From the NCBI GenBank assembly GCA_963663165.1, contig OY760175.1:1216001-1280000 (forward strand): a DNA stretch of 64,000 nucleotides, read 5' to 3'. The stretch is from an uncultured Desulfospira sp. GTDB taxonomy: Bacteria; Desulfobacterota; Desulfobacteria; Desulfobacterales; Desulfobacteraceae. This document shows positions 9,029-53,401 of the stretch, piece after piece (positions within the stretch are counted from its first letter, which is position 1; each line of letters begins with the position of its first letter). The notes beneath the pieces were generated by a model. It was not told the origin of the DNA. It saw only the letters and a list, made by a program, of their open reading frames with translations, and ran no database searches. A program made the translations under genes and the position numbers.

Positions 9029-9438
9029 TATTGATCGGGGTATGATAGGGTGGTGTAAACGATTTCGGGGGGATAATTGGGGTCAGGTAACGATTCACTC
9101 CCCTTTAGTAAAAGGAGTGGCTTCGAACTATGATCGGGCCATAATAACTAATTGAAATAAGGAGCAAAACGTTTTAAAACCGCCCCTCAGAATATGCCTA
9201 AAATGCATTTTTGAGGGGCGTCTTTATCGTGGGTCGGACCCAGCCAACCACCTGAAATAAAACAAATACCCTCCCAAAACACCCTCCAAAACTGCCTTAG
9301 GCTGGTGGTTTTGGGGCCAAAAATAACGGTTTAAGAAAAATAAGGAACCGTCTCCCGTGCTCAGGCTCCAGCCCGGCAAACTGCCGCCGGGCTTCCGCTT
9401 CCTGCGCCGGGAGCCGACCTTAATTCCGGGGACACGAA

Positions 9439-9571
9439 CGGTTTGGGGTCGGGCCACAGCAACCCATTGTAATATCTATAAAAGAGCTAAAAATATACCC
9501 CTAAAACGGCCTTAATCGACTCTTTTGGGGGCCGAAAACATGGGTTTAATTTTACTCTGACCCTATTTTTA
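9439..9571. repeat. 133-bp GGGTC double-ended repeat unit, copy A
   Basis: cggtttggggtcgggccacagc...tttaattttactctgaccctattttta, identical by eye to 29765-29897 and 30267-30399. Confidence 0.92.
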
Positions 9572-9631
9572 GCTATAAACCCGGCGGAACCTGGGGAACT
9601 GATCCGTTGTTCATGAAAGTTGGGCCTGAGT

Positions 9632-11096
9632 CAATGTCATAAAGTTAAGGATATATACATAAAATCTTTATAAATACAGTGCATTATGCTATATTTAACC
9701 TTAATAATAACCTTAAATATTTCTTGTGAAAGGAGAATAAAATGCCTGAAAAATTCAACCAATCTGGCATGGAACCTGCTTTCCAAAATATGTGCCGAGT
9801 TAATCGACTATCTTAAAAATATTCTGTATTCCCCGGAATTTATCGCCAGACATAAAAAAAACGAGAAAGATTTCACGCGCAAACGAACGCTCACTTTCCA
9901 GACACTTTTTTTGTATTTCATAAACTTCATTAAGGGCTCATATCAAGACGAGCTTGATCATTACTTCAAGGCTTTGTTTCGACTGGATGTTCCAATAAAA
10001 ATCGTTTCAAAAATGGCTTTATCTCTGGCTCGAAAAAAACTTGAATATGACGCCTTCCTTGAGTTTAATCACCATCTACTCGAGTTTTTCTATAATCGCT
10101 TTCGAAACATGAAAACCTGGAGAGGCTTTAATCTTCTTGCTATCGACGGTAGTACGCTAAAATTGTTCAAGTACAAAGAAGTCAGGGAACATTTCGGCGT
10201 GTTGAAACCCAATAAAGGCCCTGCTTGTGTAATGGCACGGGTTTCTCAAATGTTCGATGTGCTGAATAAGGTTACAATTGATGCCATTATCAGCCCTTTT
10301 AAAGTCGGAGAACGAGAGCTGTTTCATAATCATATGCTCAATCTACTCCCGAATGATTTGCTTTTATTAGATCGTGGCTATCCGGCCTATTGGATTTTTA
10401 ATTTGATTATGTCTTTGGATAGCAATTTTTGCGCAAGAATTTCAAAACAATGGAAAATCGTTCAAAATTTCATTGAATCGGGTGCCCAGGAAGCCATAAT
10501 TGATCTTCATGCTTCGTACCAATCAAAAAAAGAATGTGAAGAAATGGGTCTTGACGCCTCTCCCTTGTGTTTGCGCCTTATACGAGTTGAACTCGAAAGC
10601 GGTGAAATCGAAGTTCTCATCACATCACTGATCGATGAACAAAAATTCCCTTATGACATTTTTATGGACTTATATCATAAACGCTGGCCGGTGGAAGTTG
10701 ATTATCTTTTCATGAAACAACGCATTGAAATCGGAAATTTTTCCGGCACAACGGTATTGTCTGTCTATCAAGATTTCCATTCAAAAGTCCTGGCAAAAAA
10801 TCTTACGTGGGTACTGGCCTCCCCAGCTCAGGAGACAGTTGAAAAGGAGGACCATGAGAAAAAGTATGAATATCAGCTGAATATGACACAGGCAATTTCA
10901 AAATCTAAAGACACACTTTTTTTGCTTTTTGAAAGACCGCGTGAAATTATCGTACAGTTGATTAAAGACCTTCATGCTCTTTTCATGGCTGCAACAGAAC
11001 CAATTAGGCCCGGGCGTAAATTCAAAAGAAAACATAAGATCAACAAGCGAGAGCATTACATGAATAATAAGCCTTGTCGTTAACTTTATGACATTG
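9632..11096 (+). mobile_element. IS4-family insertion sequence
   Basis: Terminal IRs caatgtcataaagttaa / ttaactttatgacattg. A 10-bp target duplication gggcctgagt lies at 9622-9631 and 11097-11106. Confidence 0.92.
9686..11083 (+). CDS. IS4-family DDE transposase
   Basis: Motifs LAIDGS, LLDRGY and LYHKRWPVE (YREK-like). The true start is uncertain. Confidence 0.9.
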   Translation: MLYLTLIITLNISCERRIKCLKNSTNLAWNLLSKICAELIDYLKNILYSPEFIARHKKNEKDFTRKRTLTFQTLFLYFINFIKGSYQDELDHYFKALFRLDVPIKIVSKMALSLARKKLEYDAFLEFNHHLLEFFYNRFRNMKTWRGFNLLAIDGSTLKLFKYKEVREHFGVLKPNKGPACVMARVSQMFDVLNKVTIDAIISPFKVGERELFHNHMLNLLPNDLLLLDRGYPAYWIFNLIMSLDSNFCARISKQWKIVQNFIESGAQEAIIDLHASYQSKKECEEMGLDASPLCLRLIRVELESGEIEVLITSLIDEQKFPYDIFMDLYHKRWPVEVDYLFMKQRIEIGNFSGTTVLSVYQDFHSKVLAKNLTWVLASPAQETVEKEDHEKKYEYQLNMTQAISKSKDTLFLLFERPREIIVQLIKDLHALFMAATEPIRPGRKFKRKHKINKREHYMNNKPCR

Positions 11097-11295
11097 GGGC
11101 CTGAGTACTATTTTTATCACAACGATCACTTAGGCACCCCTCAAAAAATGACGGCTGTCAATGGAGCTGTGGTTTGGTCGGCTACGTACAGTTCGTTTGG
11201 CAAAGCTGAGGTTGATACTGCATCTACGGTTGAAAATAATTTGCGGTTCCCGGGACAGTATTTTGATGCTGAGACTAAACTGCACTATAATCACG

Positions 11296-11428
11296 TGGCT
11301 TGGGGTCGGGCCGCAGCAACCTGTTGTATTATTAGGAAAAGAGCTAAGAATATGCCCCTAAAACGGCCTTAATCGACCCTTTTGGGGGCCGAAAACATGG
11401 GTTTAATTTTGCTCTGACCTTATTTTTA
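11296..11428. repeat. 133-bp GGGTC double-ended repeat unit, diverged copy B
   Basis: tggcttggggtcgggccgcagc...tttaattttgctctgaccttattttta, colinear with copy A with scattered substitutions. Confidence 0.88.
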
Positions 11429-11455
11429 CAGGATATTGAGATAACCGGCCGGGCC

Positions 11456-14400
11456 GTGGACCGCAGCGACGGCCAGCCTCTTGCGCAAGTCCCCCTGATC
11501 CTGGTGATTACCTTTGACGGATTTGAAAGAAGCGACCAAATCTATACCGGCAGTGACGGCAGTTTTACCTATGCCTTTGGCCCCACCCCGGGCCAATACG
11601 GAGAGTATAAAGCCTGCGCCATCCATCCGGATCTGATGGACCGTCCGGTCCAGGGAAGATTTACCATTGCACAAACCGTTAAAGACCGGATCGGGTTTGC
11701 CCCGGCAAGTGCTGAACTCACCACCTGCCTGCGGTATGAACGGCAAATCGAAGTCACCGTCACCGCAGGCAGTGAGGCATCGGCAACCAACCTCGGGTTT
11801 GTCTATGAGGCATCCGACCAGGAAGAAGAGACCCCGGCCCAGGGTATTCATGTGGATACCGGCGACCCAGTTGCAGAACTTGGTCCCGGAGAAACCCAGA
11901 CCATCACCATCACCCTGTGGGCCGATAATACGGCCGAAGAAAACACCACCATAACCCTCAGGCTGGTCAGCGACGAGGCCCCTGATACCGGCTGGGGAGA
12001 ATTGCCCATCCGTATCCAAACCACGGACACAGGCCCGGTGGTAACCAGTGAGCCTAACCGCATAGAAACCGGCCTTGCCCTGGACCAGAGTGTTACAGAA
12101 ACCCTCACCCTCAAAAACATTGGGTTCGCCCCCCTGGTTGATCCTGCGGTGTCTCTGGTAAACCGTGACGGCACCCCGGCCCCGGGCTGGGTGTTGTTGA
12201 ACCTGCCATCGGACATGGATGCCATTGAGGTCGGGGAAAGCGTAGATGCCACGGTGCTATTTTCTCCCACCCAGGCTGAAGTATCAGAAGGAGAGTATTA
12301 TTTTTACATTCAGGTGCAAGGCGCCAATTATGCGGCCGTGAACATCCCTGTCCATGCGGTGGTGACAAGTTCCGGCACGGGCCATATCCTGTTCAAGGTA
12401 TCGGATATCTACACCGGCACCATTGATGAAAAAACCGGCAAGATGATCCAGGGGCTGCCCGGAGCCGCGTTGACCCTGCAAAATGAGAGTGCCGCAAGCA
12501 TCACCTACAGCGGTGGTACAGACCAATACGGGGAGCTGCTCTTATCCGACATCCCCGCAGGCCGGTACAAGTATATCTTAAAAGCAGACGACCATGAGCA
12601 GTCCATTGGCCGGGTCTGGATCAAGCCGGGCATTACAGCCACCCAGGATGTTTTTTTAAACAACACCCTGGTCACCGTGGAGTGGTCAGTGGTTGAGACC
12701 GGTATCCAGGACCAGTATGAGATCGTATTAAAGGCTACCTATGAGACCAATGTCCCGGCACCGGTGGTGGTGGCCGATCCCCTGTCCGTCTCCCTTGCGG
12801 GCATGTCACCCGGCGATGTCCTGTCCGGAGAAATCCGGTTCACCAATTATGGGCTGATCCGGGCAGACAACATTGAATTTGCGGCCCCTTCGTCTGACCA
12901 ATATTTTAAATACGAGTTTTTGAACATCCCTGAGACCATAGAAGCCAAAGAATCGGTCAATGTGGCTTATCGTGTAACCTGCCTGTCAAGCCTGACCGGT
13001 GAGGACGAGGGCAACGGCGGAGGGACCGGCGGCTATTCGAAATCCGGCAAAATGAGTTACTGGGCCAAGTGTTACTCCGGGTCTGCATCAATTCATTTTC
13101 ATGTCCCGGGCGAAACCGGCATCGGTGGTGAGGGCAGTGAATATACCGGCTTGTCAGGCGGATCAGACTTCAGCCATTCGAGTACCATAGCCCACGGTGT
13201 AATGTGCTGGCCGAATATCGTCCGGAAAGAATCTTCAGATAACACAGGTGGATCTTCGGCAAACAAGCAGACCGGAATACAGAACATGCAACCCGCCGCA
13301 GAAACAGACCAAAAGCAATGCACCCTCTCTTCAGTGAATATGCTGTACCGGGAATATAATCGAAACAAAACCGACATCCGGGTCAAGGTACCCGGCGGCT
13401 TGGTTCGTTTATACCGGCAGTATTACAACAATCAGTGGCACTGGAATTATCTTGACGGCAATTTAACTGTTGTTCCAAGTTCCGGAACCGGGGGGATTGA
13501 TTCCATTGAAAAAAATGATGTTATTTACGAGCCCGCCGCCACATCAACCGGCAATCAAATTTTTGTCCATGAAAATTATAAAATCATTGCCGACGAAGAC
13601 GGCTATACCTGGAAGACCCCCTATGGTGACTGGAAAAAATTTGACCTGAACGGCCGGATGGTATCCCACGGCGGCCGGGCAGGCCAGGTCGCCCAACTCA
13701 TTTATGAAGATGAAGAAACCGGCAAACTTACAGGCATTGCCGATAAAAACCTGCGTCAGATATTCTGGTTTGAGTACGACGGGGAAGGGAACTTGTCGGC
13801 AGTGGAAGACCTTAAAGGTCGGCGGGTGGCGTATACCTATGAAAACAAACTGCTGACAGGGGTTCTGGATCTTCAGGAAGGTACCACCAGCTATGAATAT
13901 GACAGCGAAAACCGGATTATAAAGACAACCACACCAGATGGGCATTACTCAACCGTAGAGTACGACGAATACGGCAACGCAACCCAATCCCTGGATGAAA
14001 ACAGCAACGGATACGATTTTGAATACACCTATGATGAATCCACGGGCCTGTTTTACGCCATGACCACTTCTCCTGCAGGACAGGTTAAGGAAGCCTGGTA
14101 TGACCTTAACGGGTACACCCGCAGGGTCGATATCAACGGCCGGACGGTCAAGACCATTGATGTATCACAAAGAACCTTTGCCGTGACCGATGAGAACGGC
14201 AATGTAACACTGGAAGAGTATGATGAATGGGAAAACTTAACCCGGATGGTTTACCCGGACGGCAGTGAGGTGACTTACGAATACGAGCGGACCTATAACC
14301 AACCGGTCCGCATGGTAAATGAAAACGGTGTGGCCACCCTTTTTGAATATGACGACAACGGCAACCTGACCCAGAAGACAGAAGCGGCCGGAACCGATGA

Positions 14401-17044
14401 TGAACGCATCACCCAATACACCTATGATGAAGACGGCAATACCCTGACCATCACCATTTTGGCTGATGCCGTCACAAGTGTATCTCAAACCGTGATGACC
14501 TATGATGGCAACGGCAACCTTGAAACCCTTACCGACCCGGCAGGCGGAATTACCAGGTTCACCGATTATGACATTACAGGCAGGCTCCTTACAAAAATCG
14601 ACGCCAGGGGCAAAACCTGGGGCTACACCTACGACAACAAGAGCAACCTTAAAACCGCCACCGATCCTTTGGGCAACACCACTGAATATGAATACGACAA
14701 GGCCGGCAACCGGACCCGAATGGTGGATGCCCTGGGCCACCAGACCCTGTTTGAATATGATCTCCACAACAACCTTGTCCTGCAAATTGACCACGAGGGC
14801 AATGAAACCCGGTTTGAATATGATGCCGGCAATAATCTGATCCGAAAGACCGATCCCGAAGGATCAGCCACCCAAAACACCTATGACACCGAAGGACGTA
14901 TGGTGAGTACGGTTGACGGCCATGGGGATGAGACCATTTTCGAATACGATGACATTGATTCTGGCTGCTCATCCTGCAACGGGTCCCGGGGCCTTCCCTC
15001 CAGAGTCATCTATCCCACGTTTACAAAAACATTCACCTATGACAGACGAAACCGGAAAACCGCAGAGACAGACCATCTGAACGACACCACCGAAACCACC
15101 ACCCTGTTTGAATATGACAGCATCGGCAACCTCGCCGCTAAAACCGACAAAGAGGGAAGAACCACCGTATACATCTATGACGCCCTGAACCGGGTCACAA
15201 AAGTAATAGATTCGGCCAACAGTGAAACCATCTATGAATATGACAACCGGGACAACTTGATATCCTTGACTGACGCTGAAAACCAGACCACGTTATTTGA
15301 GTATGACGCAGCCAACCGGCTGGTAAAGGAGACCCGTCCCCTGGGCAATGAGACCATCTACACCTATGACGACGCCGGCAACCTGACCGAAAAGACCGAC
15401 GCCAAAAATCAGAAAACCGAATATAACTATGACGATGCCGGCAGGCTAAATGAGATCCGTTACTTTGCATCTTCAACCGACACGGTTCCTGCCAAAACCG
15501 TAACCTTCTCCCACGACAAAACCGGCAACCTGACCGGCTACAACGACGGGACCACCTCAGCGGCCTACATCTACAACACCTTAAACCAAAAGACCAAAGA
15601 GACCGTGAACTACGGGGTATTCTCCCTTGAAACCGGCACAACCTATTACGGCAACGGCCTGAAAAAGAGCCAGACCGGGCCGGACGGCACCACCTACGGA
15701 TACCTGTACGACACCAACAATCAACTTTCTGCTGTACAGGTCCCCAATGCCGGGTATATAACTGTCGGGGAATACCAGTGGAACCGGCCCAAGTCTTTGC
15801 TGTTCCCCGGTGGCAGCCAAAGGACCGTTGAATACGACCCTCTCATGCGCATCAAGCAGATCACGGCCCGGGACCAGGCAGACAATCAAAACTTAAGCTT
15901 GGCTTATGAGTACGACAAAATGGACAACATAACCGCCAAAGCCACGGAACACGGCTCTTATGCTTATGAATACGATGCACTGTACCGGTTAACCCAGACG
16001 GACAACCCGGTCCAGGATGACGAGGCCTTTACCTATGACAACGTGGGCAACCGGCTGACATCTGCAGATACTTCCGCACAGTGGGCCTACAACCAGAACA
16101 ACGAACTGGCCGGTTACGACGATGTAACCTTTACCCATGACGCCAACGGCAACATCATCGAGAAGAACAATAACGGTACCATCACCCGCTTTTACTACAA
16201 TATCGAAAACCGCCTGGAGCGTGTAGAAAGCGAATCCGGAACAGTAATTGCCGAATACTACTATGACCCCTTTGGCCGCCGTCTCTGGAAAGACGTATCC
16301 GGAACCCGAACCTGCTACCACTACACCGACGAGGGCCTGGCAGGCGAATACAATGCCGCAGGCAACACGAAAAAGACCTACGGCTACAAACCCGGCGGAA
16401 CCTGGGGAACTGATCCGTTGTTCATGAAGGTTGGGTCCGAGTATTATTTTTACCACAATGACCACTTAGGCACCCCTCAAAAAATGACGGCTGTCAATGG
16501 GGTTGTTGTTTGGTCGGCTAGGCACAGTTCGTTTGGCAAAGCTGAGGTTGATTCTGTATCTACGGTTGAAAATAATTTACGGTTCCCGGGACAGTATTGG
16601 GATGCGGAGATGGGGCTGAATTATAACTGGCATCGGTATTATGATTTGCACACCGGACGATATATCACTGCTGATCCGATTGGGCTTGACGGCGGGATTA
16701 ATTATTATTTTTATGCGAAACAAAATCCAATCACTTTTGTTGACTCATTGGGCTTAGTATGTGGATCAGGCTGGAATGATCCGATAGTCCCTGATGAATG
16801 GTTTCTTTTTGATTTTACTGATGCATGCCAAAAACATGATGATTGCTATGGAAATTGCAAAGGCCCTAAGAAGGAAGTCTGTGATCGTAATTTTTTAAAC
16901 GACATGTTAAGCAAATGCCAAAAAGAAGGAATGTTCCAACTAGTTCTAGATTGTAAAATAAAAGCATATATCTATTATAAATTCGTTGATTGGTTTGGAG
17001 GCGGTCCATTCGATGATTCTAGGAAAAACTGTTGTAACCCATAA
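11456..17044 (+). CDS. 5'-truncated Rhs paralogue (copy 2) with phospholipase A2-like C-terminal toxin
   Basis: Homology to copy 1 starts at about 11431, right after repeat B. The tip after DSLGL (16757-17044) contains CGSG...FTDACQKHDDCY...CDRNF, the secretory PLA2 C-x-x-H-D-x-C-Y motif. Confidence 0.88.
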   Translation: MDRSDGQPLAQVPLILVITFDGFERSDQIYTGSDGSFTYAFGPTPGQYGEYKACAIHPDLMDRPVQGRFTIAQTVKDRIGFAPASAELTTCLRYERQIEVTVTAGSEASATNLGFVYEASDQEEETPAQGIHVDTGDPVAELGPGETQTITITLWADNTAEENTTITLRLVSDEAPDTGWGELPIRIQTTDTGPVVTSEPNRIETGLALDQSVTETLTLKNIGFAPLVDPAVSLVNRDGTPAPGWVLLNLPSDMDAIEVGESVDATVLFSPTQAEVSEGEYYFYIQVQGANYAAVNIPVHAVVTSSGTGHILFKVSDIYTGTIDEKTGKMIQGLPGAALTLQNESAASITYSGGTDQYGELLLSDIPAGRYKYILKADDHEQSIGRVWIKPGITATQDVFLNNTLVTVEWSVVETGIQDQYEIVLKATYETNVPAPVVVADPLSVSLAGMSPGDVLSGEIRFTNYGLIRADNIEFAAPSSDQYFKYEFLNIPETIEAKESVNVAYRVTCLSSLTGEDEGNGGGTGGYSKSGKMSYWAKCYSGSASIHFHVPGETGIGGEGSEYTGLSGGSDFSHSSTIAHGVMCWPNIVRKESSDNTGGSSANKQTGIQNMQPAAETDQKQCTLSSVNMLYREYNRNKTDIRVKVPGGLVRLYRQYYNNQWHWNYLDGNLTVVPSSGTGGIDSIEKNDVIYEPAATSTGNQIFVHENYKIIADEDGYTWKTPYGDWKKFDLNGRMVSHGGRAGQVAQLIYEDEETGKLTGIADKNLRQIFWFEYDGEGNLSAVEDLKGRRVAYTYENKLLTGVLDLQEGTTSYEYDSENRIIKTTTPDGHYSTVEYDEYGNATQSLDENSNGYDFEYTYDESTGLFYAMTTSPAGQVKEAWYDLNGYTRRVDINGRTVKTIDVSQRTFAVTDENGNVTLEEYDEWENLTRMVYPDGSEVTYEYERTYNQPVRMVNENGVATLFEYDDNGNLTQKTEAAGTDDERITQYTYDEDGNTLTITILADAVTSVSQTVMTYDGNGNLETLTDPAGGITRFTDYDITGRLLTKIDARGKTWGYTYDNKSNLKTATDPLGNTTEYEYDKAGNRTRMVDALGHQTLFEYDLHNNLVLQIDHEGNETRFEYDAGNNLIRKTDPEGSATQNTYDTEGRMVSTVDGHGDETIFEYDDIDSGCSSCNGSRGLPSRVIYPTFTKTFTYDRRNRKTAETDHLNDTTETTTLFEYDSIGNLAAKTDKEGRTTVYIYDALNRVTKVIDSANSETIYEYDNRDNLISLTDAENQTTLFEYDAANRLVKETRPLGNETIYTYDDAGNLTEKTDAKNQKTEYNYDDAGRLNEIRYFASSTDTVPAKTVTFSHDKTGNLTGYNDGTTSAAYIYNTLNQKTKETVNYGVFSLETGTTYYGNGLKKSQTGPDGTTYGYLYDTNNQLSAVQVPNAGYITVGEYQWNRPKSLLFPGGSQRTVEYDPLMRIKQITARDQADNQNLSLAYEYDKMDNITAKATEHGSYAYEYDALYRLTQTDNPVQDDEAFTYDNVGNRLTSADTSAQWAYNQNNELAGYDDVTFTHDANGNIIEKNNNGTITRFYYNIENRLERVESESGTVIAEYYYDPFGRRLWKDVSGTRTCYHYTDEGLAGEYNAAGNTKKTYGYKPGGTWGTDPLFMKVGSEYYFYHNDHLGTPQKMTAVNGVVVWSARHSSFGKAEVDSVSTVENNLRFPGQYWDAEMGLNYNWHRYYDLHTGRYITADPIGLDGGINYYFYAKQNPITFVDSLGLVCGSGWNDPIVPDEWFLFDFTDACQKHDDCYGNCKGPKKEVCDRNFLNDMLSKCQKEGMFQLVLDCKIKAYIYYKFVDWFGGGPFDDSRKNCCNP

Positions 17045-17049
17045 AATTA

Positions 17050-44853: not shown

Positions 44854-45171
44854 ATGAAAAAATTAATTGTTCGGGTTTTAGGTGCATGTATTTGTTTATT
44901 GTGTGGAATTTATTTTAAAATATCGTTTGAAAGCGTAATAACGAAGTGGGAACATAATGTTCTGAATGTTTGGCCTATAACAACATGGTGTGTTTTTTTA
45001 TTCGGGAACCTCTTATATTTTATTTTTTTTGTTATATCTTTAAGGATGCTTATTTGGGGGAAAATGCCTTCTCTAATTGTAAAAGCTGTATTAGATTTTC
45101 AGAAAATTTGGTTTGTACAATACTTAATTCGATGGACTGAAAAGATCGGGCGTTGGGTCACGCGGTTTTAA
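44854..45171 (+). CDS. Putative immunity protein, membrane
   Basis: 105 aa with two hydrophobic segments, directly after the tip. Confidence 0.7.
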   Translation: MKKLIVRVLGACICLLCGIYFKISFESVITKWEHNVLNVWPITTWCVFLFGNLLYFIFFVISLRMLIWGKMPSLIVKAVLDFQKIWFVQYLIRWTEKIGRWVTRF

Positions 45172-45462
45172 ATTCAGTTGACCGGGGACCGGGGGACGGG
45201 CCAAGAAATGCAATGTAACCAATTGATAATAAATGATTTTAATTTTTGAAACACTGGTTTGGGTCTATTATTAGGGCGATAATTGGGGTCCGATAATTGG
45301 ATAATTGGGATAATTGGGGTGACCGGGGGTCGGGCCGCAGCAACCGATTGTAATATAAGAAAAAGAACCAAAATCACACCCCCAAAAACGGCCTTAATCG
45401 CCTCTTTTGGTCTAATGGGGTCAGGCTTGACATTTGGACTTTCTATTCCCCAAAGCAAATTG

Positions 45463-45675
45463 CTATGCCACAGCCATAAGCTTATCTGTCCGGTCTCCTA
45501 GTGTTTTAATGATTTCCTGGATAGCGTCTACTTCCTGTTCATCAAAATAGACCTCTGCGCATTGTTGACACACCCAGGCCGGCACTTTTTCCAAAGTTAA
45601 GTGGTAGCCCTTTTGATCAATATGAAAAGGTGCCGTGCTTTTGATCATTGTTCCCTGGCAATGCATACACTTCAT
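45463..45675 (-). CDS. YgiT-type (MqsA-like) zinc-finger protein, putative antitoxin
   Basis: MKCMHCQG...VPAWVCQQCAEVYF. Confidence 0.82.
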   Translation of the reverse strand: MKCMHCQGTMIKSTAPFHIDQKGYHLTLEKVPAWVCQQCAEVYFDEQEVDAIQEIIKTLGDRTDKLMAVA

Positions 45676-45989
45676 GGTTTTTTCCTTGTTTTAAAATCGT
45701 TCTCCCACTCCTGTTCGTCGGGCAGGTAAGCGGTTATAATGGCAAGATAGTCCGGTTTGGGAGAACAAACAACATGGATCGCCCGATCAGGGCAGCCCAG
45801 GACAAGGCAACTGTGGCCCCGGACATCTTCCGGATAATCTTCTATGACCTCACCGTTTTCGATCACGTAACGGATATCCCTGGTGCTTATCATCCTGTCC
45901 GGCCTTGACATCTGGCGTACAGCATGGGGAAGAAACAGTATTTGTTTTTCCGCACTTTTCTGTATGCGGTTCAATATGTCATGTTCCAT
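45672..45989 (-). CDS. DUF4258-like putative toxin
   Basis: HAVRQM...GEVIEDYPED...SCLVLG...IHVVC...IITAYLPD..W; 4-nt overlap with the zinc-finger gene. Confidence 0.8.
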   Translation of the reverse strand: MEHDILNRIQKSAEKQILFLPHAVRQMSRPDRMISTRDIRYVIENGEVIEDYPEDVRGHSCLVLGCPDRAIHVVCSPKPDYLAIITAYLPDEQEWENDFKTRKKP

Positions 45990-45994
45990 AAATG

Positions 45995-46141
45995 CTACAG
46001 GCCTGTTTGGGACGCCAAACGCTGGAAACGGTGTTTAATAATAAATGTATTTAATACCTCTTTTATCGTGGTTCGGTCCTCTTCGGTCAGGTTGTCTATC
46101 TCCTTGATGGTCTGCATCAACGCCCTGTCAGCTAATACCAT
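45995..46141 (-). CDS. 48-aa protein resembling the C-terminal domain of the local XRE regulators (not in ORF track)
   Basis: MVLADRALMQTIKEIDNLTEEDRTTIKEVLNTFIIKHRFQRLASQTGL with RBS ggag. It aligns by eye with the end of 47186..47557. Confidence 0.6.
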   Translation of the reverse strand: MVLADRALMQTIKEIDNLTEEDRTTIKEVLNTFIIKHRFQRLASQTGL

Positions 46142-46218
46142 AGTCACTCCATTGTTTTATTACAATCAGGCTATTTTTGATCATATTTTTTAGTGTGCCT
46201 TTATTTTTCAAGTTGGGC

Positions 46219-46553
46219 AAGTTTTTTTCAAACAAGGCCAGTGAAGACAATGCCTTCCAGATTTACCAGGGGGATCTGCCCCCCTTGGAAGCGCCCGCAG
46301 GCCTTGCCGGAGTCAGTATGCCGGCAGGAAAGATCAGCCTTACATGGAATGCCGTGGATTCTGCCGCAGGATATGTGGTGTACCGGATGGCTCCCGGGCA
46401 AGTTCAACTTTCCCCTTTAACCACCCTTGACACCACACAATATACAGACCAGCCGGATCAGGAAGGCACATACACCTATGCGGTGGCAAGTCTGCGCAGT
46501 GTAAACGGCCAGGAAGCCGAAAGCGGCCAAAGTGCGTCTATTGAAGTTGAGTC
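46219..46553 (+). pseudogene. Isolated FN3-repeat fragment of the giant Rhs gene
   Basis: Matches copy 1 at about 1626-1940. It ends at an atgagtcgggcc/ggggtc site. Confidence 0.85.
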
Positions 46554-46732
46554 ATGAGTCGGGCCATGAGCAAGCAAATGAGTCGGGGTCGGACCAAGCA
46601 AAATGATTTATAATCAATCAGTTAGCCTTAAAAACATCCCCTTTTGGGGGCCTATATTGATGTTTTTGAGGGCAAAAAAGGCGTTTTAAGAAACCAACCA
46701 AGGTCAAGCTTGACAGCTAAACAAGAGTTCAG

Positions 46733-46981
46733 CTAATAATGATATCTACAAGCCAATATCCTGATTTTTTCATCAAAGACCTGGTAGACCAGCCGGTGTT
46801 CCCGGTCAATCCGTCGTGACCAGCATCCAGACAGTTCATGTTTGAGGGGTTCGGGCTTGCCCGTCCCCTCAAACGGTTGGCGTTGGACTTCCTTGATGAG
46901 TTTAACGATTTTTTGGGCCTTCTTTCTGTCCTTTTCGATCCACCAGGCAAGGTCCTCAAATCCGTTGGCATCAAACTCCAA
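46733..46981 (-). CDS. Txe/YoeB-family toxin
   Basis: PFEGTGKPEPLKHELSGCWSRRIDREHRLVY...CRYHY. The start is uncertain (ORF track gives 47035). Confidence 0.9.
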   Translation of the reverse strand: MEFDANGFEDLAWWIEKDRKKAQKIVKLIKEVQRQPFEGTGKPEPLKHELSGCWSRRIDREHRLVYQVFDEKIRILACRYHY

Positions 46982-47174
46982 GATCCTGGCAGGCTTTATC
47001 AAAAGGTATTCCTTCCGTGCGGTTTTTAGCATCAAGCAGCCGTTTTTTCATCGCGGCACTTTTGAGCAGATAGGCGGTCTCTTTTTCCGCCTCAATTTCC
47101 TTCCACAGATTAATGGGCACTATAACGCCCGTGATATTGTTTCTATCGTCAGAAATATATTGAATCTGGTTCAT
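46971..47174 (-). CDS. Putative antitoxin for YoeB
   Basis: 67 aa upstream of and overlapping the toxin. ETAYLLKS resembles YefM-type C-termini. Confidence 0.75.
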   Translation of the reverse strand: MNQIQYISDDRNNITGVIVPINLWKEIEAEKETAYLLKSAAMKKRLLDAKNRTEGIPFDKACQDLGV

Positions 47175-47557: not shown

Positions 47558-47846
47558 AAGACAACCTCCTTTCTTAATCATAGGGCTTTGAATTCTTGAA
47601 ATCAAATCAATTTTTTCTTAACTTTGCCATATTAAGACACTAATTATCAAATAATGCTATAGTTTTTTCTAAAAATGAGCTTGAGAAAAGAGAGTCCATC
47701 AATCAGACTTTGCCAAAATAACCGGTTAACGGTCAGACAAATCACAAAGGGCAAGCCCGTTCGGAACCGTTTTCTTTTACATTCATATCTCCGGACATAA
47801 GTTCAATCAAATCAGCGACGATGCCCCTGATACCGGCTGGGGAGAA

Positions 47847-50800
47847 TTGCCCATCCGTATCCAAACCACGGACACAGGCCCGGTGGTAACCAGTGAGCCC
47901 AACCGCATAGAAACCGGCCTTTCCCTGGACCAAAGCATTACAGAAACCCTCACCCTCAAGAACATGGGGTTCGCCCCCCTGGTTGATCCTGCCGTGTCCC
48001 TGGTAAACCGTGACGGCACCCCGGCCCCGGGCTGGGTGTTGCTGAACCTGCCGTCGGACATTGATGCCGTTGAGGTCGGGGAAAGCGTGGATGCCACGCT
48101 GTTGTTTTCTCCCCCCCCCCAGGGGGCGGTATCAGAAGGCGATTATTATTTTTATATCCAGTTGGAAGGCGCCAATTATGCGGCCGTAAACATCCCTGTT
48201 CATGCAGCGGTCACCAGTTCGGGCACGGGCCATATCCTGTTCAAGGTATCGGACATCTACACCGGCACCATTGATGAAAAAACCGGCAAGATGATCCAGG
48301 GGCTGTCCGGAGCCGCGTTGACCCTGCAAAACGAGAATGCCGCAAGCATCACCTACAGCGGCGGTACGGACCAATACGGGGAACTGCTCTTATCCGACAT
48401 CCCCGCAGGCCGGTACAAGTACATCCTGAAAGCGGACGACCATGAGCAATCCATCGGCCGGGTCTGGATCAAGCCGGGCATTACGGCCACCCAGGATGTT
48501 TTTTTAAACAACACCCTGGTGACCGTGGAGTGGTCAGTGGTTGAAACCGGTATTCAGGACCAGTATGAGATCGTATTAAAGGCCACCTATGAGACCAATG
48601 TCCCGGCACCGGTGGTGGTGGCCGATCCCCTGTCCGTCTCCCTTGCGGGCATGTCACCCGGCGATGTCCTGTCCGGAGAAATCCGGTTCACCAATTATGG
48701 GCTGATCCGGGCGGACAATATTGAATTTGCGGCCCCTTCGTCTGACCAATATTTTAAATACGAGTTTTTAGACATCCCTGCCACCATAGAAGCCAAAGAA
48801 TCTGTCAATGTGGCTTATCGTGTAACCTGCCTTTCCAGCCTGACCGGTGAAGATGAGGGCAACGGTGGGGAAACCGGCGGCTATTCGAAATCGGGTAAAA
48901 TGAGTTACTCTGCCAAATGTTACTCCGGGTCTATATCAGTTAATTTCAATGTCCCGGGAACCGGCAGCGGTGGTGACTGGACAATGCCTTGGGGATCGGC
49001 GAGCAGCACAGGCTTTGGCCGTTCCAGCGAAATTCCCGAAGGGGTGAAATGCTGGCCGGGTTTTGACCGTGAAGAACCATCATTTTTTAACGCTGCAAAA
49101 TCAAATCAAGTCCAATGCGTTTTGTCTTCAGTGAATATGCTGCATCGGGAATATAATCGCCACAAAACCGACATCCGGGTCAAGGTGCCCGGCGGGACGA
49201 TAAGTTTTGAACGGCGGTATTACGACAACCAGTGGCACCTGGATTATCTGGATGATAATTTAACCTTTCAAAGCACAGGATCGGACTTAATTATTAAAAA
49301 CGATGTTAAATACAAACCTGTCGCCAACGACAGCCGTATTTTTATCCATAAAAATTATAAAATCATCACTACCGACACCGGGTATACCTGGAAGGCACCC
49401 CATGGCGACTGGAAAAAATTTGACCCGGACGGCCGCATGATGTCTTACGGTGACCGGAACGGCCTGGTGGCCCAACTCATTTACGAAGATGGAGAAAATG
49501 GACGCCTTACAGGCATAGCCGATAAAAACATGCGCCAAATATTCTGGTTTGAATACGACGGGGAAGGAAACCTGGCAGCCGTAGAAGACTTTGAGAGGCG
49601 TCGGATTGAATACTCTCATGGGAATGGCCTGCTTACGGACGTCCAGGATTTACAGGGGAATACAACCAGCTATGAATACGACGATGAGAACCGGATTATA
49701 AAGACAACTACGCCAGACGGGCATTATTCCACAGTGGTATACGACGAATACGACAATGTGACTCAATCCCTGGATGAAAATAACCAGGGGTACGGTTTTG
49801 AGTATGTCTATAGTGAATCCACAAGGCTGTCTTATGCCATGGTCACTTCTCCTGCAGGGCAGGTCAAGGAGGCCTGTTATGACCTGGACGGGTACACCCG
49901 CAGGGTTGACATAAACGGGCGTACAGTCAAGACCATTGATGTATCACTAAGAACCTTTGCCGTGACCGATGAGAACGGCAATGTAACCATAGAAGAGTAT
50001 GATGAATGGGGAAATTTAACCCGGATGAGCTACCCGGACGGCAGTGAAGTAACCTACGAATACGAACGGACCTATAACCAACCGGTCCGCAAGGTAAATG
50101 AAAACGGGGTGGTAAGCTTTTTTGAATATGACGACAACGGCAACCTGACCCAAAAGACGGAAGCAGCCGGAACCGATGATGAACGGATAACCCAACACAC
50201 CTATGATGAAGACGGCAATACCCTGACCATCACCATTTTGGCGGATGCCGATACAAGTGTCTCTCAAACCGTGATGACCTATGATGACAACGGCAACCTT
50301 GAAACCCTTACCGACCCGGCAGGCGGAATTACCCGGTTCACCGATTATGACATTACAGGCAGGCTCCTTACAAAAATCGACGCCAGGGGCAAAACCTGGG
50401 GCTATACCTACGACAACAAGGGCAATCTTAAAACCGCCACCGATCCTTTGGGCAACACCACTGAATATGAATACGATAAAGCCGGCAATCGAACCCGAAT
50501 GGTGGATGCCCTGGGCCGCCAGACCCTGTTCGAATATGATCTCCACGGCAACCTTGTCCTGCAAACCGACCACGAGGGCAACGAAACCCGGTTTGAATAT
50601 GATGCCGGCAATAACCTGATCCGGAAAACCGATGCCCAGGGCTCCACCACCCAAAGTACCTATGACACCGAAGGCCGCATGGTCAGCACGGTTGACGGCC
50701 ATGGGGATGAGACCGCTTTCGAATACAATGATACAGATACCGGCTGCTCGTCCTGCAACGGTTCCCGGGGCCTGCCCTCCAGGATCATCTATCCCACGTT

Positions 50801-52862
50801 CACAAAAACATTCACCTATGACAGACGAAACCGGAAAACCGCAGAGACAGACCATCTGAACGATACCACCGAAACCACCACCCTGTTTGAATATGACAGC
50901 GCCGGCAACCTTGCCGCAAAAACCGACAAAGAGGGGCGAACCACCGCATACACCTATGATGCCCTGAACCGGATTACAAAAGTAATTGACCCGGCCAACG
51001 GTGAAACCATTTATGAATATGACGACCGGGACAACCTGATATCACTGACCGACGCTGAAAACCAGACCACGCTATTTGAGTATGACGCAGCCAACCGACT
51101 GGTAAAGGAGACCCGTCCCCTGGGCAATGAGACCACCTACGCCTATGACAACGCCGGCAGCCTGACCGAAAAGATCGATGCCAAAAACCAGAGAACCGAA
51201 TATGAATATGACGATGCCGGCAGGCTAAATGAAATCCGTTACTTTGCATCTTCAATCGATACTACCCCTGCCAAAACCGTGACCTTCTCCCACGACAAAA
51301 CCGGCAACCTGACCGGCTACAACGACGGGACCACTTCAGCGGTTTACACCTACAACACCTTAAACCAGAAAATCAAAGAAACCATGAACTACGGGGCATT
51401 CTCCCTTGAAACCGGCACCACCTATTACGGCAACGGCATGAAAAAGACCCAGACCGGGCCGGACGGCACCACCTACGGCTACCTGTACGACGCCAACAAT
51501 CAACTTTCTGCTGTACAGGTCCCCAATGCCGGGTATATAACTGTGGGCGAATACCAGTGGAACCGGCCCAAGTCTTTGCTGTTCCCCGGAGGCAGCCAAA
51601 GGACCGTTGAATACGACCCACTCATGCGCATCAAGCAGATCACGGCCCGGGACCAGGCAGACAATCAAAACTTAAGCTTGGCTTATGAGTACGACAAAAT
51701 GGACAACATAACCGCCAAAGCCACGGAACACGGCTCTTATGTTTATGAATACGATGCCCTGTACCGGTTAACAAATACGGACAACCCGGTCCAGGATGAC
51801 GAGGCATTTACCTATGACAACGTGGGCAACCGGCTGACATCGTCAGAGACTTCAGACCAGTGGGCCTACAACCAGAACAACGAACTGGCCGGTTACGACA
51901 GCGTAACCTTTGTCCATGACGCCAACGGCAACATCATCGAGAAGAACAATAACGGTACCATCACCCGCTTTTACTACAATATCGAAAACCGCCTGGAGCG
52001 TGTAGAAAGCGAATCCGGAACTATAATTGCCGAATACTACTATGACCCCTTTGGCCGCCGTCTCTGGAAAGACGTATCCGGAACCCGAACCTGCTACCAC
52101 TACACCGACGAGGGCCTGGCAGGCGAATACAATGCCGCAGGCAACACGGTGAAGACCTACGGCTATAAACCCGGCGGAACCTGGGGAACCGATCCGTTGT
52201 TCATGAAAGTTGGGCCTGAGTACTATTTTTATCACAACGATCACTTGGGCACCCCGCAAAAAATGACGGCTGTCAATGGGGCTGTGGTTTGGTCGGCTAC
52301 GTATAGTTCGTTTGGTGAAGCTGAGGTTGATTCTGCGTCTACGGTTGAAAATAATTTGCGGTTCCCGGGACAATATTTTGATGCTGAAACCGGGCTGCAC
52401 TATAATTGGTTCAGATATTATAATCCTGAAACTGGGCTGTATATCACCACTGATCCTATTGGCCTTTCAGGTGGGATTAATCTTTATAGTTACGCCCTAA
52501 AAAATTCGATTAATTACATTGATTTTCGGGGGCTTGACATAGTTGATGATATTTGGGACGGCCTTGAAGGGCATGGTCCTCTTACTGACCCTATTGATCC
52601 CTCCGATCTATTTGATGCGATAATTTTCGTTATTGAACACGCCTATTCTGCATGTGTGCATTGTGCAGTGAAATGCACTTTACAAGTAGTGTTGCCTTCT
52701 GAGGCTGCAAGTGCAGTTGTAAGGGATATTCTGAAAAATAGAGCTATGGGAGTTGCAAAAGATTCTCTTGAAAAAACTATTCCGTATTATAACACCGTGG
52801 ATGTTGCCGTAACAGCAGCCTTGGTCGCTATATGTACTATTGATTGTCAATCAAAACAATAA
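47847..52862 (+). CDS. 5'-truncated Rhs paralogue (copy 4) with a distinct Cys-containing tip
   Basis: Homology to copy 1 begins at about 47812. The core is nearly identical to copy 1 up to tacgccc (52497). The tip follows DFRGL at 52536-52862. Confidence 0.88.
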   Translation: MPIRIQTTDTGPVVTSEPNRIETGLSLDQSITETLTLKNMGFAPLVDPAVSLVNRDGTPAPGWVLLNLPSDIDAVEVGESVDATLLFSPPPQGAVSEGDYYFYIQLEGANYAAVNIPVHAAVTSSGTGHILFKVSDIYTGTIDEKTGKMIQGLSGAALTLQNENAASITYSGGTDQYGELLLSDIPAGRYKYILKADDHEQSIGRVWIKPGITATQDVFLNNTLVTVEWSVVETGIQDQYEIVLKATYETNVPAPVVVADPLSVSLAGMSPGDVLSGEIRFTNYGLIRADNIEFAAPSSDQYFKYEFLDIPATIEAKESVNVAYRVTCLSSLTGEDEGNGGETGGYSKSGKMSYSAKCYSGSISVNFNVPGTGSGGDWTMPWGSASSTGFGRSSEIPEGVKCWPGFDREEPSFFNAAKSNQVQCVLSSVNMLHREYNRHKTDIRVKVPGGTISFERRYYDNQWHLDYLDDNLTFQSTGSDLIIKNDVKYKPVANDSRIFIHKNYKIITTDTGYTWKAPHGDWKKFDPDGRMMSYGDRNGLVAQLIYEDGENGRLTGIADKNMRQIFWFEYDGEGNLAAVEDFERRRIEYSHGNGLLTDVQDLQGNTTSYEYDDENRIIKTTTPDGHYSTVVYDEYDNVTQSLDENNQGYGFEYVYSESTRLSYAMVTSPAGQVKEACYDLDGYTRRVDINGRTVKTIDVSLRTFAVTDENGNVTIEEYDEWGNLTRMSYPDGSEVTYEYERTYNQPVRKVNENGVVSFFEYDDNGNLTQKTEAAGTDDERITQHTYDEDGNTLTITILADADTSVSQTVMTYDDNGNLETLTDPAGGITRFTDYDITGRLLTKIDARGKTWGYTYDNKGNLKTATDPLGNTTEYEYDKAGNRTRMVDALGRQTLFEYDLHGNLVLQTDHEGNETRFEYDAGNNLIRKTDAQGSTTQSTYDTEGRMVSTVDGHGDETAFEYNDTDTGCSSCNGSRGLPSRIIYPTFTKTFTYDRRNRKTAETDHLNDTTETTTLFEYDSAGNLAAKTDKEGRTTAYTYDALNRITKVIDPANGETIYEYDDRDNLISLTDAENQTTLFEYDAANRLVKETRPLGNETTYAYDNAGSLTEKIDAKNQRTEYEYDDAGRLNEIRYFASSIDTTPAKTVTFSHDKTGNLTGYNDGTTSAVYTYNTLNQKIKETMNYGAFSLETGTTYYGNGMKKTQTGPDGTTYGYLYDANNQLSAVQVPNAGYITVGEYQWNRPKSLLFPGGSQRTVEYDPLMRIKQITARDQADNQNLSLAYEYDKMDNITAKATEHGSYVYEYDALYRLTNTDNPVQDDEAFTYDNVGNRLTSSETSDQWAYNQNNELAGYDSVTFVHDANGNIIEKNNNGTITRFYYNIENRLERVESESGTIIAEYYYDPFGRRLWKDVSGTRTCYHYTDEGLAGEYNAAGNTVKTYGYKPGGTWGTDPLFMKVGPEYYFYHNDHLGTPQKMTAVNGAVVWSATYSSFGEAEVDSASTVENNLRFPGQYFDAETGLHYNWFRYYNPETGLYITTDPIGLSGGINLYSYALKNSINYIDFRGLDIVDDIWDGLEGHGPLTDPIDPSDLFDAIIFVIEHAYSACVHCAVKCTLQVVLPSEAASAVVRDILKNRAMGVAKDSLEKTIPYYNTVDVAVTAALVAICTIDCQSKQ

Positions 52863-52878
52863 ATAGTCAAGAGAAATA

Positions 52879-53208
52879 ATGGATTACTTTAATCAAAAAA
52901 CTTATTCGCTTTTTATTTTAATAACTTCTATCGTTACATTTTTTTATTTCAGAAACAAGGACAAGGAATTTATTGGCAGAGACAAATTATTTTTTGTTTT
53001 GGGATCTGTTTTTGTTGTTATTAATTGTTTTTTTGTCCAACTAACATATGGTTCTGATGTCCTTTTTGAGTGTTTATTACTAAAAAAACTAATGGTTAGC
53101 GCTAAGTTAATTCCAATAGGATATATTTTCATTCTGCTATCGGTTTTCTTTTTTATTGATGATATTATTAAAAAAATATTTTCATATTACAGATCAAAAC
53201 CCTCTTAG
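52879..53208 (+). CDS. Putative immunity protein, membrane
   Basis: 109 aa with three hydrophobic segments, AT-rich, after the tip. Confidence 0.72.
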   Translation: MDYFNQKTYSLFILITSIVTFFYFRNKDKEFIGRDKLFFVLGSVFVVINCFFVQLTYGSDVLFECLLLKKLMVSAKLIPIGYIFILLSVFFFIDDIIKKIFSYYRSKPS

Positions 53209-53401
53209 ACTGGGCTATAGACTGCAGACTGGGCGAGACTGGGTTCAGACTGGGGGGTCGGGCCGAATATTTACGCCCGCCCCCCCCGAATAATTATTTT
53301 TTGTCCATAATTTGCTTCAACTTTTTTATTTTTCGAAAAATTTTTTCGTTTTCATATGAAGCAACTTGACTCTCTTCTCTCAACAAAACTGCCTTTTTGT
53401 A

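Follow-up and report, generated by a model that had tools for sequence, protein, structure and literature searches.

Putative TIRYT element ends as recurrent recombination joints in an Rhs toxin-immunity array of an uncultured Desulfospira sp.

The Rhs locus of this uncultured Desulfospira sp. raises the question of how unrelated DNA comes to be joined, time and again, at a short GGGG-type site behind a putative immunity gene. A sequence-only reading of the 64,000-nucleotide stretch of DNA analysed here (the window) had proposed an undescribed cassette-shuffling system with attC-like joining sites. The parts of that proposal which stood are that the sites are real joints, that DNA is gained and lost at them, and that toxin-antitoxin (TA) and Rhs genes are enriched beside them; its novelty and its likeness to attC did not hold, and its ordered reshuffling found no support. 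We consider it fairly probable that the joints are ends of TIRYT elements which are cut about 7 nt outside the repeat and rejoined to other 3′ ends, and that they would supply the non-homologous joint in the turnover of Rhs tips.

A same-strand GGGG[A/T]C site lies 3′ of 7/7 putative immunity stops in the window, and all seven reported pairs of stop and site were borne out: 9028 with 9079; 17514 with 17551, 17582 and 17612; 26161 with 26182 and 26220; 29664 with 29771; 35154 with 35171, 35236 and 35287; 45171 with 45285, 45326 and 45417; and 53208 with 53254. The site at the FN3 fragment (46585) is likewise present. To these can be added a GGGGAC site at 45192 and, on the minus strand, ends at 9563, 11420, 29889 and 30391. 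The term immunity rests here on position behind a toxin tip, and the putative immunity ORFs have no Pfam matches. The proposed distance of 15-115 nt from stop to site is correct as to coordinates, but at the first, second, third and seventh immunity genes (imm1, imm2, imm3 and imm7) the real joint is probably nearer the stop, since degenerate copies of tag and stub reach or overlap the stop codon there. The bare hexamer GGGGTC is ruled out as the signal, being under-represented (32 observed vs 46.3 ± 6.6 in shuffles). Extended family motifs number 22 in the window against 1.6 per 64 kb expected from the genome mean, a partly circular comparison as the patterns were drawn from the window. The Rpn, XRE and TA cargo genes had been placed upstream of the motif like the immunity genes; they are found instead on the other strand, ending at the inner side of the repeat. 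Short-read contigs (runs X1 and X2 may derive from the source sample) cross 8600-9468, 16516-17635 and 25001-26242 without differences from the genome, and thus these three junctions are not assembly artefacts. One loose contig end at 17636 is not present in the genome (agreement 0.7), and among the TIR joints listed from short-read contigs none was clearly new, all matching other copies or the sister species. There were no Rfam matches between 8500 and 55500.

As judged from their sequence, the motif sites are the terminal inverted repeats (TIRs) of TIRYT elements, which encode Y1/HUH transposases, and of miniature derivatives of these elements. TIRYT/TIRtron elements and the TIR repeat families were described in 2013 (Di Nocera et al., PMC3733652) and correspond to TnpA-Y1 subclass 2.1 (Quentin et al., 2018, PMC6006769), and the system is in that sense a published one. 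The motif is the same as the sequence at either end of Y1-transposase elements in this genome, which holds 159 TIR sites in six families; a matching transposase gene is present for five families, and none was found in this genome for the C family. Inverted repeats lie on both sides of the Y1/HUH gene, with both ends present in the A, D, E and F elements and, in the B element, a degenerate left end and a right end. The sites match the published end consensus GGGGWSAS (PMC3733652, PMC6006769); the fit to GGGG[AT][CG]A[CG] is full in A, C and F, and D, E and B have GGGGTC and then deviate. Alignment with the published table reveals NH-x-H and Y-x-x-x-NP motifs and a C-terminal extension in the transposases, with N-M in place of N-P in the B protein and a Bac_DnaA_C domain in the D protein; the A-family transposase carries a frameshift in both of its copies in this genome, whereas intact TIRYT genes are present for the E family (4888 kb, 324 aa), the F family (4421 kb, 222 aa) and the B family (4911 kb, 265 aa). 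Moreover, the window itself links motif and element directly: at 26182..26295 (+), a TIR stub, two copies of the tag GGAAAAT and the left end of an A-family TIRtron with its first transposase codons are fused to Rhs core, and this left end is 96.7-98.8% identical to sequences at 3023.5 kb and 4947.5 kb of the genome. A literature search found no published assay of TIRYT binding to or cleaving a TIR, and a search of solved structures with the E-family TIRYT returned 0 matches. REP/RAYT sequences of the GTAG or CGTC type were rejected, as neither tag occurs in the family consensuses; folding of the A mini-element is very weak (-2.5 kcal/mol), and the E and F dimers are palindromic only through their two facing ends. 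Elsewhere in the genome, a Y2_Tnp fragment lies near one TIR.

The array opens with the 3′ part of a full-length Rhs gene (7..8871, +; 4787 aa, start upstream of the window), the origin of most core fragments in the array, followed by putative immunity gene 1 (8888..9028, +; 46 aa, so labelled by position only) and a GATAATT tag with a degenerate TIR (9072..9090, +); the same tag recurs behind other immunity genes at 17605, 35229, 35280 and 45278. A 133-bp hybrid MITE (9439..9571) combines a B-family end (+, tag CGGTTT) with an A-family end (-, tag TAAAAAT), the latter linked at 7 nt out to position 8177 of the Rhs core, and the core fragment that follows (9572..11291, +; equal to 8177-8421) contains a DDE insertion sequence and breaks off 10 nt short of the following B end. 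MITE copy 2 (11297..11430) has a right junction to Rhs position 3294 which is common to the window, the sister species and the 913-kb copy in the genome, with a different left flank in all three. Orphan module 2 (11431..17514, +) comprises core from 3294, a phospholipase-A2-like tip and a putative immunity gene (17050-17514); stacked B, B and A ends (17551..17655, +), including a 44-bp A mini-element with tag GATAATT, come next, and then an Rpn/YhgA-like gene fragment (17703..18356, -; PF04754) that ends at the inner side of the TIR. Orphan module 3 (18779..26161, +; core from 2173, putative immunity gene 25637-26161) does not start at a TIR. Behind the fused TIRtron end lies orphan module 4 (26293..29664, +), which has two putative immunity genes and is split by a DDE insertion sequence at 26801-28657.

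Further along, the A end of MITE copy 3 (29765..29898) is joined 7 nt out to Rhs position 5416, and the reiterated TAAAAAT tag of MITE copy 4 (30267..30403) is joined directly to a bare toxin-tip fragment, which together with its putative immunity genes (30400..35154, +) contains two insertion sequences (30729-33434 and 33702-35088). A B stub, three GATAATT copies, an A mini-element and a CACCCC-GATAATT-GGGGTC junction (35171..35310, +) precede a unit (35314..45171) of XRE, primase, XerC/D-like recombinase and Fic genes, then Rhs core fragment, tip and immunity gene; its recombinase gene is broken by a 4.2-kb multicopy IS481-like element, and the unit is possibly a second vehicle for orphans. 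A stack of a B end, GATAATT-tag stubs, a B end (partial MITE) and a C end (45192..45430, +) leads into a 1.67-kb stretch (45417..47078, +) with a DUF4258 operon, an FN3 piece of Rhs, the B end at 46585 (target-derived tag TGAGTC) and a YoeB-like TA. This stretch is copied at 912755-911089 of the genome, where the copy begins exactly at the TIR and stops at a point without one. The last orphan module (47812..53208, +; core from 3830, putative immunity gene 52879-53208) again does not start at a TIR and is followed by five copies of the tag AGACTG and the B end at 53254 (53206..53270, +), the first tag copy overlapping the immunity stop codon. Orphan core pieces match the module just upstream at 91-98% and are not exact copies. 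At least six window junctions (18779, 26293, 30010, 44295, 46226 and 47812) and a 401-bp tandem duplication lack a TIR. What had been described as modules ending at a fixed site are instead units that start at a tag and TIR. PADLOC matched only HTH and SoFic among the window cargo; elsewhere in the genome, three TIR-adjacent ATPases match PDC-S01.

The breaks cluster a short distance outside the repeat. Among 229 leading TIR sites, 60 have an intact paralogue or orthologue, and against these the break falls 0-3 nt out in 8/60, 4-11 nt out in 36/60 (mode 7-8) and 12-70 nt out in 16/60, which bears out the claim that unrelated DNA is joined 5-9 nt 5′ of the motif. The 4-11 nt class makes up 36/52 of the breaks at 4 nt or more, compared with 21/62 in controls (p 3e-4; the rows are not independent). 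The eight breaks at 0-3 nt carry target-derived tags, some of them mis-assigned, and one fixed cut does not account for them. A tag of at least 7 nt is locally reiterated at 62/159 TIR sites, compared with 15/737 other intergenic GGGG[AT]C sites and 40/2900 random intergenic sites; the match length peaks at 7, and the reiterations begin at a constant point about 7 nt out and end variably. In other species the tag is reiterated at 27/179 A-family sites and at 9/1001 controls. As to the reported lack of target duplication, short TSDs are indeed absent, but direct duplications of 75-443 bp flank three TIR-led cassettes elsewhere in the genome. Duplications were seen on the inner side at 15 and on the outer side at 8 of 141 sites (p 0.21), the inner-side figure comparing with 9/247 at random sites (15/141, p 0.008); in other species they were inner at 2 and outer at 1 of 76. 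Each TIR end appears to work alone, which is new here.

The sites are recombination joints that depend neither on Rhs homology nor on IS ends, and comparison with the sister species places gains and losses just outside them, the outcome for which an alignment of strains had been suggested as a check. Tags are retained or renewed; orthologous MITEs keep both their place and their tag, with a difference of 12-22 nt in the DNA that lies outside it. A conserved host gene of the sister species breaks off at an A-end tag, with 38-56 kb of the DNA found here missing, and TIR sites in that species mark gaps of 0.3, 0.5, 3.1, 4.0 and 25.6 kb. The one verified empty site for an insertion with a long duplication is that of a VapBC cassette, in which a 9-nt tag, TIR and VapBC stand between two copies of 443 bp of host DNA present once in the sister species. 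Its donor context is limited to two gene-level matches of 68% identity among 80 family genomes, so that the far junction is unmappable. The sister species also carries a 4.2-kb SNF2-helicase block that follows a C-type TIR; this block is absent from both other genomes and is a weak second example, sharing only 5-7 nt at its far end. No empty site was found for the 913-kb copy, which lacks orthologous flanks in two sister genomes, or for the MITEs at 4152 kb and 5843 kb, where synteny stops short of the site.

The enrichment of TA and Rhs cargo beside the sites was also confirmed. A same-strand TIR follows within 2.5 kb of 13/22 Rhs cores, compared with 166/5514 genes (7/15 cores outside the window), and in other genomes 22/121 Rhs cores have one on the same strand vs 3 on the opposite strand. 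For TA toxins, 17/54 lie within 1 kb of a TIR vs 82/917 short genes and 48/319 short low-GC genes; 37/54 TA toxins and 9/22 Rhs cores have no TIR nearby. Across GTDB, A-family ends sit mostly beside housekeeping genes, with Rhs at 1/80 loci and one RelE among 131 neighbours by NCBIfam, whose models detect TA genes poorly; these neighbours do not support a general association between the A family and TA genes. In the mostly open-access literature searched, no listed paper connects such ends with Rhs or TA, and a Stenotrophomonas Rhs preprint mentions no transposase, MITE or palindrome.

We propose that TIRYT, as the likely catalyst, would nick the strand that carries GGGG, some 7 nt beyond the repeat, and hold the 5′ end, consisting of tag and repeat, on its tyrosine until it is joined to any available 3′-OH, a chemistry suggested by analogy with other HUH enzymes. 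If the nicked 3′ end were slightly extended before joining, a reiteration of tag and stub would result; if the 3′ end came from further out, the adjacent DNA would be deleted, from bases to tens of kilobases; and if a host 3′ end received a TIR-led single strand with cargo, the far end of which re-primed on the host by short or long homology, the outcome would be a one-ended insertion within a duplicated stretch of host DNA. For Rhs arrays, the homologous side would come from the core and the non-homologous joint from the TIR, giving modules of core piece, tip, immunity gene and TIR, so that TIRYT would have a role in tip displacement; later deletions would trim these modules until a gene under selection is met. 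The direction of most gains and losses is presumed in this scheme, and deletions stopping at selected genes may account for much of the link of TIRs to Rhs and TA genes.

It is possible, if unlikely, that such deletion is the whole story: Rhs modules and TA operons would arrive by homologous recombination, tandem duplication or other mobile elements, TIR ends would only delete outward, and the association would reflect selection, not capture, the survivors being deletions that stopped at an immunity or TA gene. The four immunity stop codons reached or overlapped by tags are consistent with this, as are the nested left flanks at the junction of MITE and Rhs 3294 (Rhs 8421 here, 6149 in the sister species), the many TIR-bounded gaps that resemble losses, the outer ends of several TIRs that face TA promoters, and a run X6 contig with tip 1 on core closer to module 2, as homologous exchange gives (one contig, depth 9.9). 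However, outward trimming does not explain the VapBC insertion with its 443-bp duplication and empty orthologous site, the copy of 45417-47078 that begins exactly at a TIR 300 kb away, or the blocks at TIR junctions at different loci in two species (L482, L489, L490, L495).

An integron-like process, in which TIRYT cuts two direct-repeat sites of tag and TIR and a single-stranded circle with one TIR and cargo reinserts at another TIR so that cassettes are reordered, has little chance of being correct. Ends of the same orientation with a common tag and differing cargo occur in a TA array at 1527-1537 kb of the genome; the MITE array at 3255-3259 kb holds a tip and immunity gene between two ends; a 1.9-kb unit running from a TAGGCG tag to just before the same tag is present here and not in the sister species; CCCC, a 7-nt tag and GGGG meet at 35274-35292; and the two species differ in module order. 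Yet the far ends are heterogeneous, modules that were duplicated and then lost could give the difference in order, and the array is headed by neither a dedicated enzyme gene nor a promoter. Nor was any cassette with both boundaries precise found in two different array positions, which speaks against ordered excision and reinsertion. The attC analogy fares no better: pairs of the core pattern RYYYAAC ... GTTRRRY lie behind 0/7 stops, and the tyrosine recombinase at 37033-37857 scores best on XerC/D models and 99 bits on TIGR02249 (cut-off 265), which takes it out as an IntI. For dif-like 28-bp sites at module ends, one consensus, which divergent sites would escape, had no match in the window.

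Plain MITE insertion into AT-rich accessory DNA, with slippage producing the reiterations and with insertion sequences or the XerC/D-like recombinase at 37033 mobilising the modules, fits the general enrichment of TIRs in low-GC accessory DNA (the 48/319 above), the one MITE site that lost only about 15 bp (L487) and the XRE-primase-recombinase unit or XRE remnants before two orphans, but it has very little chance of being correct and is largely refuted, because the flanks of the window MITEs are not contiguous in the intact Rhs gene (which, with tags that differ or are inverted copies, also led us to reject classical DDE MITE insertion), and it is further opposed by the replacement of 0.3-4 kb at most MITE sites, the fixed start about 7 nt out and variable ends of the reiterations, and the strand polarity behind Rhs cores (22 vs 3).

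Cutting and rejoining at TIR ends could explain the gain, trimming and movement of modules in toxin-immunity arrays, and the locus leads to a sharp prediction: cleavage should fall about 7 nt outside GGGG and leave the tag in place. It also suggests a candidate biological role, in a genome that offers intact pairs of enzyme and ends. In the survey by Quentin et al. (PMC6006769), 14.9% of the genomes carry TIRYT-type genes, and our literature search found no functional study of them; even outward trimming alone would still be a first mechanistic footprint for TIRYT. More tentatively, in a generalization that we find conceivable and would not favor on present evidence, TIRYTs might be trans-acting single-strand splicers whose dispersed ends serve as programmable ligation points, capturing TIR-led cargo at host 3′ ends and leaving host duplications of up to hundreds of base pairs; they would then be the enzyme of the Rhs non-homologous joint and of TA-array growth in this lineage and at about one fifth of related Rhs loci, a toxin-diversifying HUH system that is neither integron nor classical transposon.

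The array resembles an integron in that toxin, immunity and TA genes are each bounded by a short recurring site, and differs from it by lacking attC core sites, IntI and a fixed far boundary. When IS91/ISCR elements transpose one-endedly by rolling circle, and when Helitrons capture genes, an HUH enzyme likewise begins at a single defined end and takes adjacent DNA to a variable far end. IS91/ISCR enzymes are of the Y2/Rep class, whereas here a Y1 enzyme would act in trans on inverted ends and leave long host duplications. TnpA-REP of the E. coli BIMEs, a member of the same superfamily, cleaves single-stranded DNA and transfers strands in vitro, and Ton-Hoang et al. (2012, PMC3333891) proposed a nick, extend and rejoin model by which flanking genes would be captured and amplification would occur. 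TnpA-REP requires GTAG hairpins and cuts at CT at many distances according to that text (PMC3333891), in contrast to the TIR ends described here, which lack a GTAG hairpin, break about 7 nt out and show no evident CT rule in their tags. Like the published TIRtrons, our elements have Y1/HUH genes encoding NH-x-H and Y-x-x-x-NP (with N-M in the B family), inverted GGGG[AT][CG] ends, TIR copies that are dispersed singly, as dimers and in clusters, and a Bac_DnaA_C tail on one protein. The cut position, the 7-nt outer tag and its reiteration, the adjacent deletions, the one-ended cargo insertion with long duplication and the Rhs/TA link are absent from the accessible portions of those accounts (PMC3733652, PMC6006769). 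Subclass 2.1 TnpA-REP also co-localises with prochlorosin genes and was proposed to drive their diversification, likewise placing this subclass beside a diversifying antagonism-type gene family, but there the link consists of transposase genes and not of TIR junctions, and a later note by the authors saw no strong evidence for or against causality (bioRxiv 10.1101/2020.03.09.984088, in its available sections). In orphan Rhs, CDI and T6SS tip-immunity arrays the non-homologous junction has been called unknown or ascribed to rare illegitimate recombination, and displacement of Rhs C-termini has been attributed to homology-facilitated illegitimate recombination (Poole et al., 2011, PMC3150448; Kirchberger et al., 2017, PMC5361080). 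The present array likewise combines a homologous anchor on the core side with a non-homologous joint downstream of the immunity gene, leaving strings of orphans; however, the available text of those two papers names neither enzyme nor site for the illegitimate joint, and here that joint repeatedly coincides with what we identify as a TIRYT end.

In this study, we show that the GGGGTC-bearing elements of the window belong to a known class, the TIRtrons, whose terminal inverted repeats (TIRs) carry GGGG[A/T]C and whose Y1/HUH transposase is termed TIRYT, as the class is outlined in PMC3733652 and PMC6006769. A genome search gave 14 Y1_Tnp matches, several of them lying between GGGG[A/T]C ends in inverted orientation, and clustering resolved six end families (A to F); 174 sites from a consensus scan were reduced to 159 by dropping 15 intragenic, chance-looking matches. 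At genome 3023 kb and 4947 kb lie elements with GGGGTCAGAGTAAAATT, the A-family end, on either flank, and window 26208-26295 is the left end of the A-family element with its first codons, fused to Rhs core. A second TIRYT type has the B end on its left, and each of the four 133-bp miniature elements (MITEs) of the window is a hybrid that combines a B end with an A end. One intact reading frame each was found for the B, D, E and F transposases, no C-family transposase gene was found in the genome, and both genome copies of the A transposase (L057:4500-5300 and L075:3500-6200) carry a common one-base frameshift near the start; one copy lies directly after an Rhs fragment. A separate repeat family beginning GGGGACTTGGGATATGGG has 24 copies genome-wide (e.g., genome 471970 and 1301240), with heptamer-like tandem units, often behind the same AT-rich flank.

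The window itself is an Rhs array with the 3' part of a full-length gene and six or more orphan modules (core piece, tip and immunity gene), together with insertion sequences and small cargo. The sequence-only reading had placed a GGGGTC-core site behind each Rhs immunity stop, as part of an attC-analogous cassette-joining system. On re-scanning, every site it listed was present at its coordinates; the hexamer alone did not hold up as the signal, being rarer than chance (32 vs 46), and the extended family motifs are strongly concentrated in the window (22 vs 1.6 expected, a partly circular comparison). "Immunity" is a label by position, with no family matches among these ORFs. The tip of orphan module 2 (window 11456-17044) has a prokaryotic phospholipase A2 domain. 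Window 43579-44041 is non-coding and GC-rich, with inverted repeats and no Rfam matches; these 460 bp are 91% identical to a counterpart at genome 1809 kb that adjoins another Rhs locus.

The tag, i.e., the roughly 7 nt just 5' of GGGG, is copied upstream, with repeat stubs 0-32 nt long. Copies of at least 7 nt accompany 62/159 TIR sites, compared with 15/737 other intergenic GGGG[AT]C and 40/2900 random intergenic positions, and match lengths peak at 7. A GTDB scan with the A end gave at least 139 loci, and among the matches listed the reiteration recurs at 27/179 distinct sites vs 9/1001 nearby controls. An intact paralogue was available for 60 of the 229 leading sites compared (this genome and sister-species loci), with breaks 0-3 nt (8), 4-11 nt (36) or 12-70 nt (16) outside GGGG; 135 of 872 control positions were informative (73, 21 and 41, respectively). 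Since the 0-3 class of the controls reads as mostly an artefact of alignments reaching the query end, this class was omitted, and the difference gave p 3e-4 with rows that are not independent. Most junctions keep the old tag (TAAAAAT abuts Rhs positions 8177, 5416 and 3294), some have a target-derived tag (e.g., window 46585), and in two MITEs of the sister species one end is of the first type and the other of the second. These patterns suggest that each end acts singly, with a break about 7 nt out.

At the orthologous locus of the sister species (G001), a conserved host gene is cut at an A-end tag, 38-56 kb present here are missing, and the only remnants are MITE-separated Rhs scraps; other TIRs of G001 mark gaps of 0.3, 0.5, 3.1, 4.0 and 25.6 kb, most of which may be either gains or losses. 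The claim that breaks fall just 5' of the motif stood in the comparison with the sister species; at least six window junctions are without a TIR. MITEs common to the species keep place and tag, with differences of 12-22 nt in the DNA further out, which stay in frame where the MITE lies in a gene. An F-family palindromic MITE (L066:4700-4800, genome 3937.7 kb) lies in frame within a sigma-54 activator gene, with in-frame length differences in G001; it is absent from a second sister genome. Insertion takes place as well: at genome 3942 kb, a 443-bp piece of an enoyl-CoA hydratase gene (X) is followed by a 9-nt tag, a TIR, a VapBC operon and X again, and G001 has a single X without the cassette. 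Comparable duplications of 431 and 75 bp have no clean empty site. A copy of window 45417-47078 lies 300 kb away, beginning at the TIR and stopping at an unmarked point, and several blocks, an Rhs orphan and a VapBC operon among them, are found at TIR junctions whose loci differ between the two species.

Toxin-antitoxin (TA) toxins (PIN, ParE, PemK) lie within 1 kb of a TIR in 17/54 cases, vs 82/917 short genes and 48/319 short low-GC genes, and 13 of the 17 are on the strand opposite the nearest TIR. At genome 1525.5-1541 kb (L044:4502-20000), at least 15.5 kb are 100% identical to G001, other orthologues being about 90%, a very recent transfer with the whole TIR and TA array on board; there, L044:6600-16600 has five B ends in a single orientation, and behind most of them come a terminator common to all and a convergent TA or ATPase gene that differs from end to end. 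Three TIR-adjacent AAA/DUF4143 genes (L043:18088-19422, L044:9374-10207, L053:5064-6194) match the candidate defence family PDC-S01, and in another organism an anti-phage nucleotidyltransferase gene (L158:1507-2394) has an A-family end directly after it.

A same-strand TIR lies within 2.5 kb of 13/22 Rhs cores (6/7 in the window, 7/15 outside; 23 matches less one sub-threshold duplicate) vs 166/5514 genes. At a second Rhs locus, four A-MITEs have constant tags, with a bare tip and immunity gene between two of them. In other organisms, under a looser TIR rule (background 214/3643 single-strand tiles in this genome) and with cores having less than 1.2 kb downstream dropped (10 and 17, respectively), same-strand sites accompany 11/57 cores in a sample at class level (the 29 best loci and 20 regions picked mostly for several Rhs cores) and 11/64 in 78 metagenome loci, compared with 1/57 and 2/64 on the opposite strand; G-run strand bias could contribute to this excess. 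In an Electrothrix record, an A-MITE joins two parts of an Rhs gene that lie far apart. Against generality, Rhs occurs in 1/80 and TIRYT in 16/80 GTDB A-family loci among the matches listed, and neighbours, scanned in 71 of the 80 with overlaps removed, are mostly housekeeping.

Tandem duplication followed by trimming would yield the window layout and fits too; the window contains a 401-bp tandem duplication of a recombinase 3' part without a TIR (37553-37997 and 42202-42564), the second copy of which holds a 4.2-kb multicopy IS481-like element (integrase, AAA ATPase, RepB-like primase). The modules may also have travelled with an XRE-primase-XerC/D-like unit. With regard to TIRYT action, cleavage by HUH enzymes yields a 5'-phosphotyrosine together with a free 3'-OH (PMC3333891). 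A putative TIRYT nick about 7 nt outside GGGG would retain tags, and reiteration would arise if the nicked 3' end were extended and then rejoined. Joining of a distant 3'-OH to the tag-TIR end would delete adjacent DNA; joining of a host 3' end to TIR-led cargo, with the far end re-priming upstream, would give one-ended insertion with duplication, and a second cut at the CCCC boundary may renew tags. Four immunity stop codons are reached by tags, and therefore trimming up to a selected gene probably contributes. A bolder view, in which TIRYT serves as a toxin-diversifying splicer, we hold to be possible but somewhat improbable. Among the papers listed, our literature search did not find 7-nt one-ended joining, long duplications or the Rhs/TA link, and the papers' supplements may hold relevant data on TIR flanks.

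On its minus strand, the window reads core piece X, TAAAAAT tag, A end, immunity gene, tip and X, the same form as the VapBC case at genome 3942 kb. This order is the Rhs tip-displacement layout, with the TIR placed at the non-homologous joint, which PMC5361080 and PMC3150448 leave to illegitimate recombination. Because similarity between the orphan core pieces and the upstream module is only 91-98%, this step is argued by analogy, by which the TIR may supply the joint in Rhs tip displacement.
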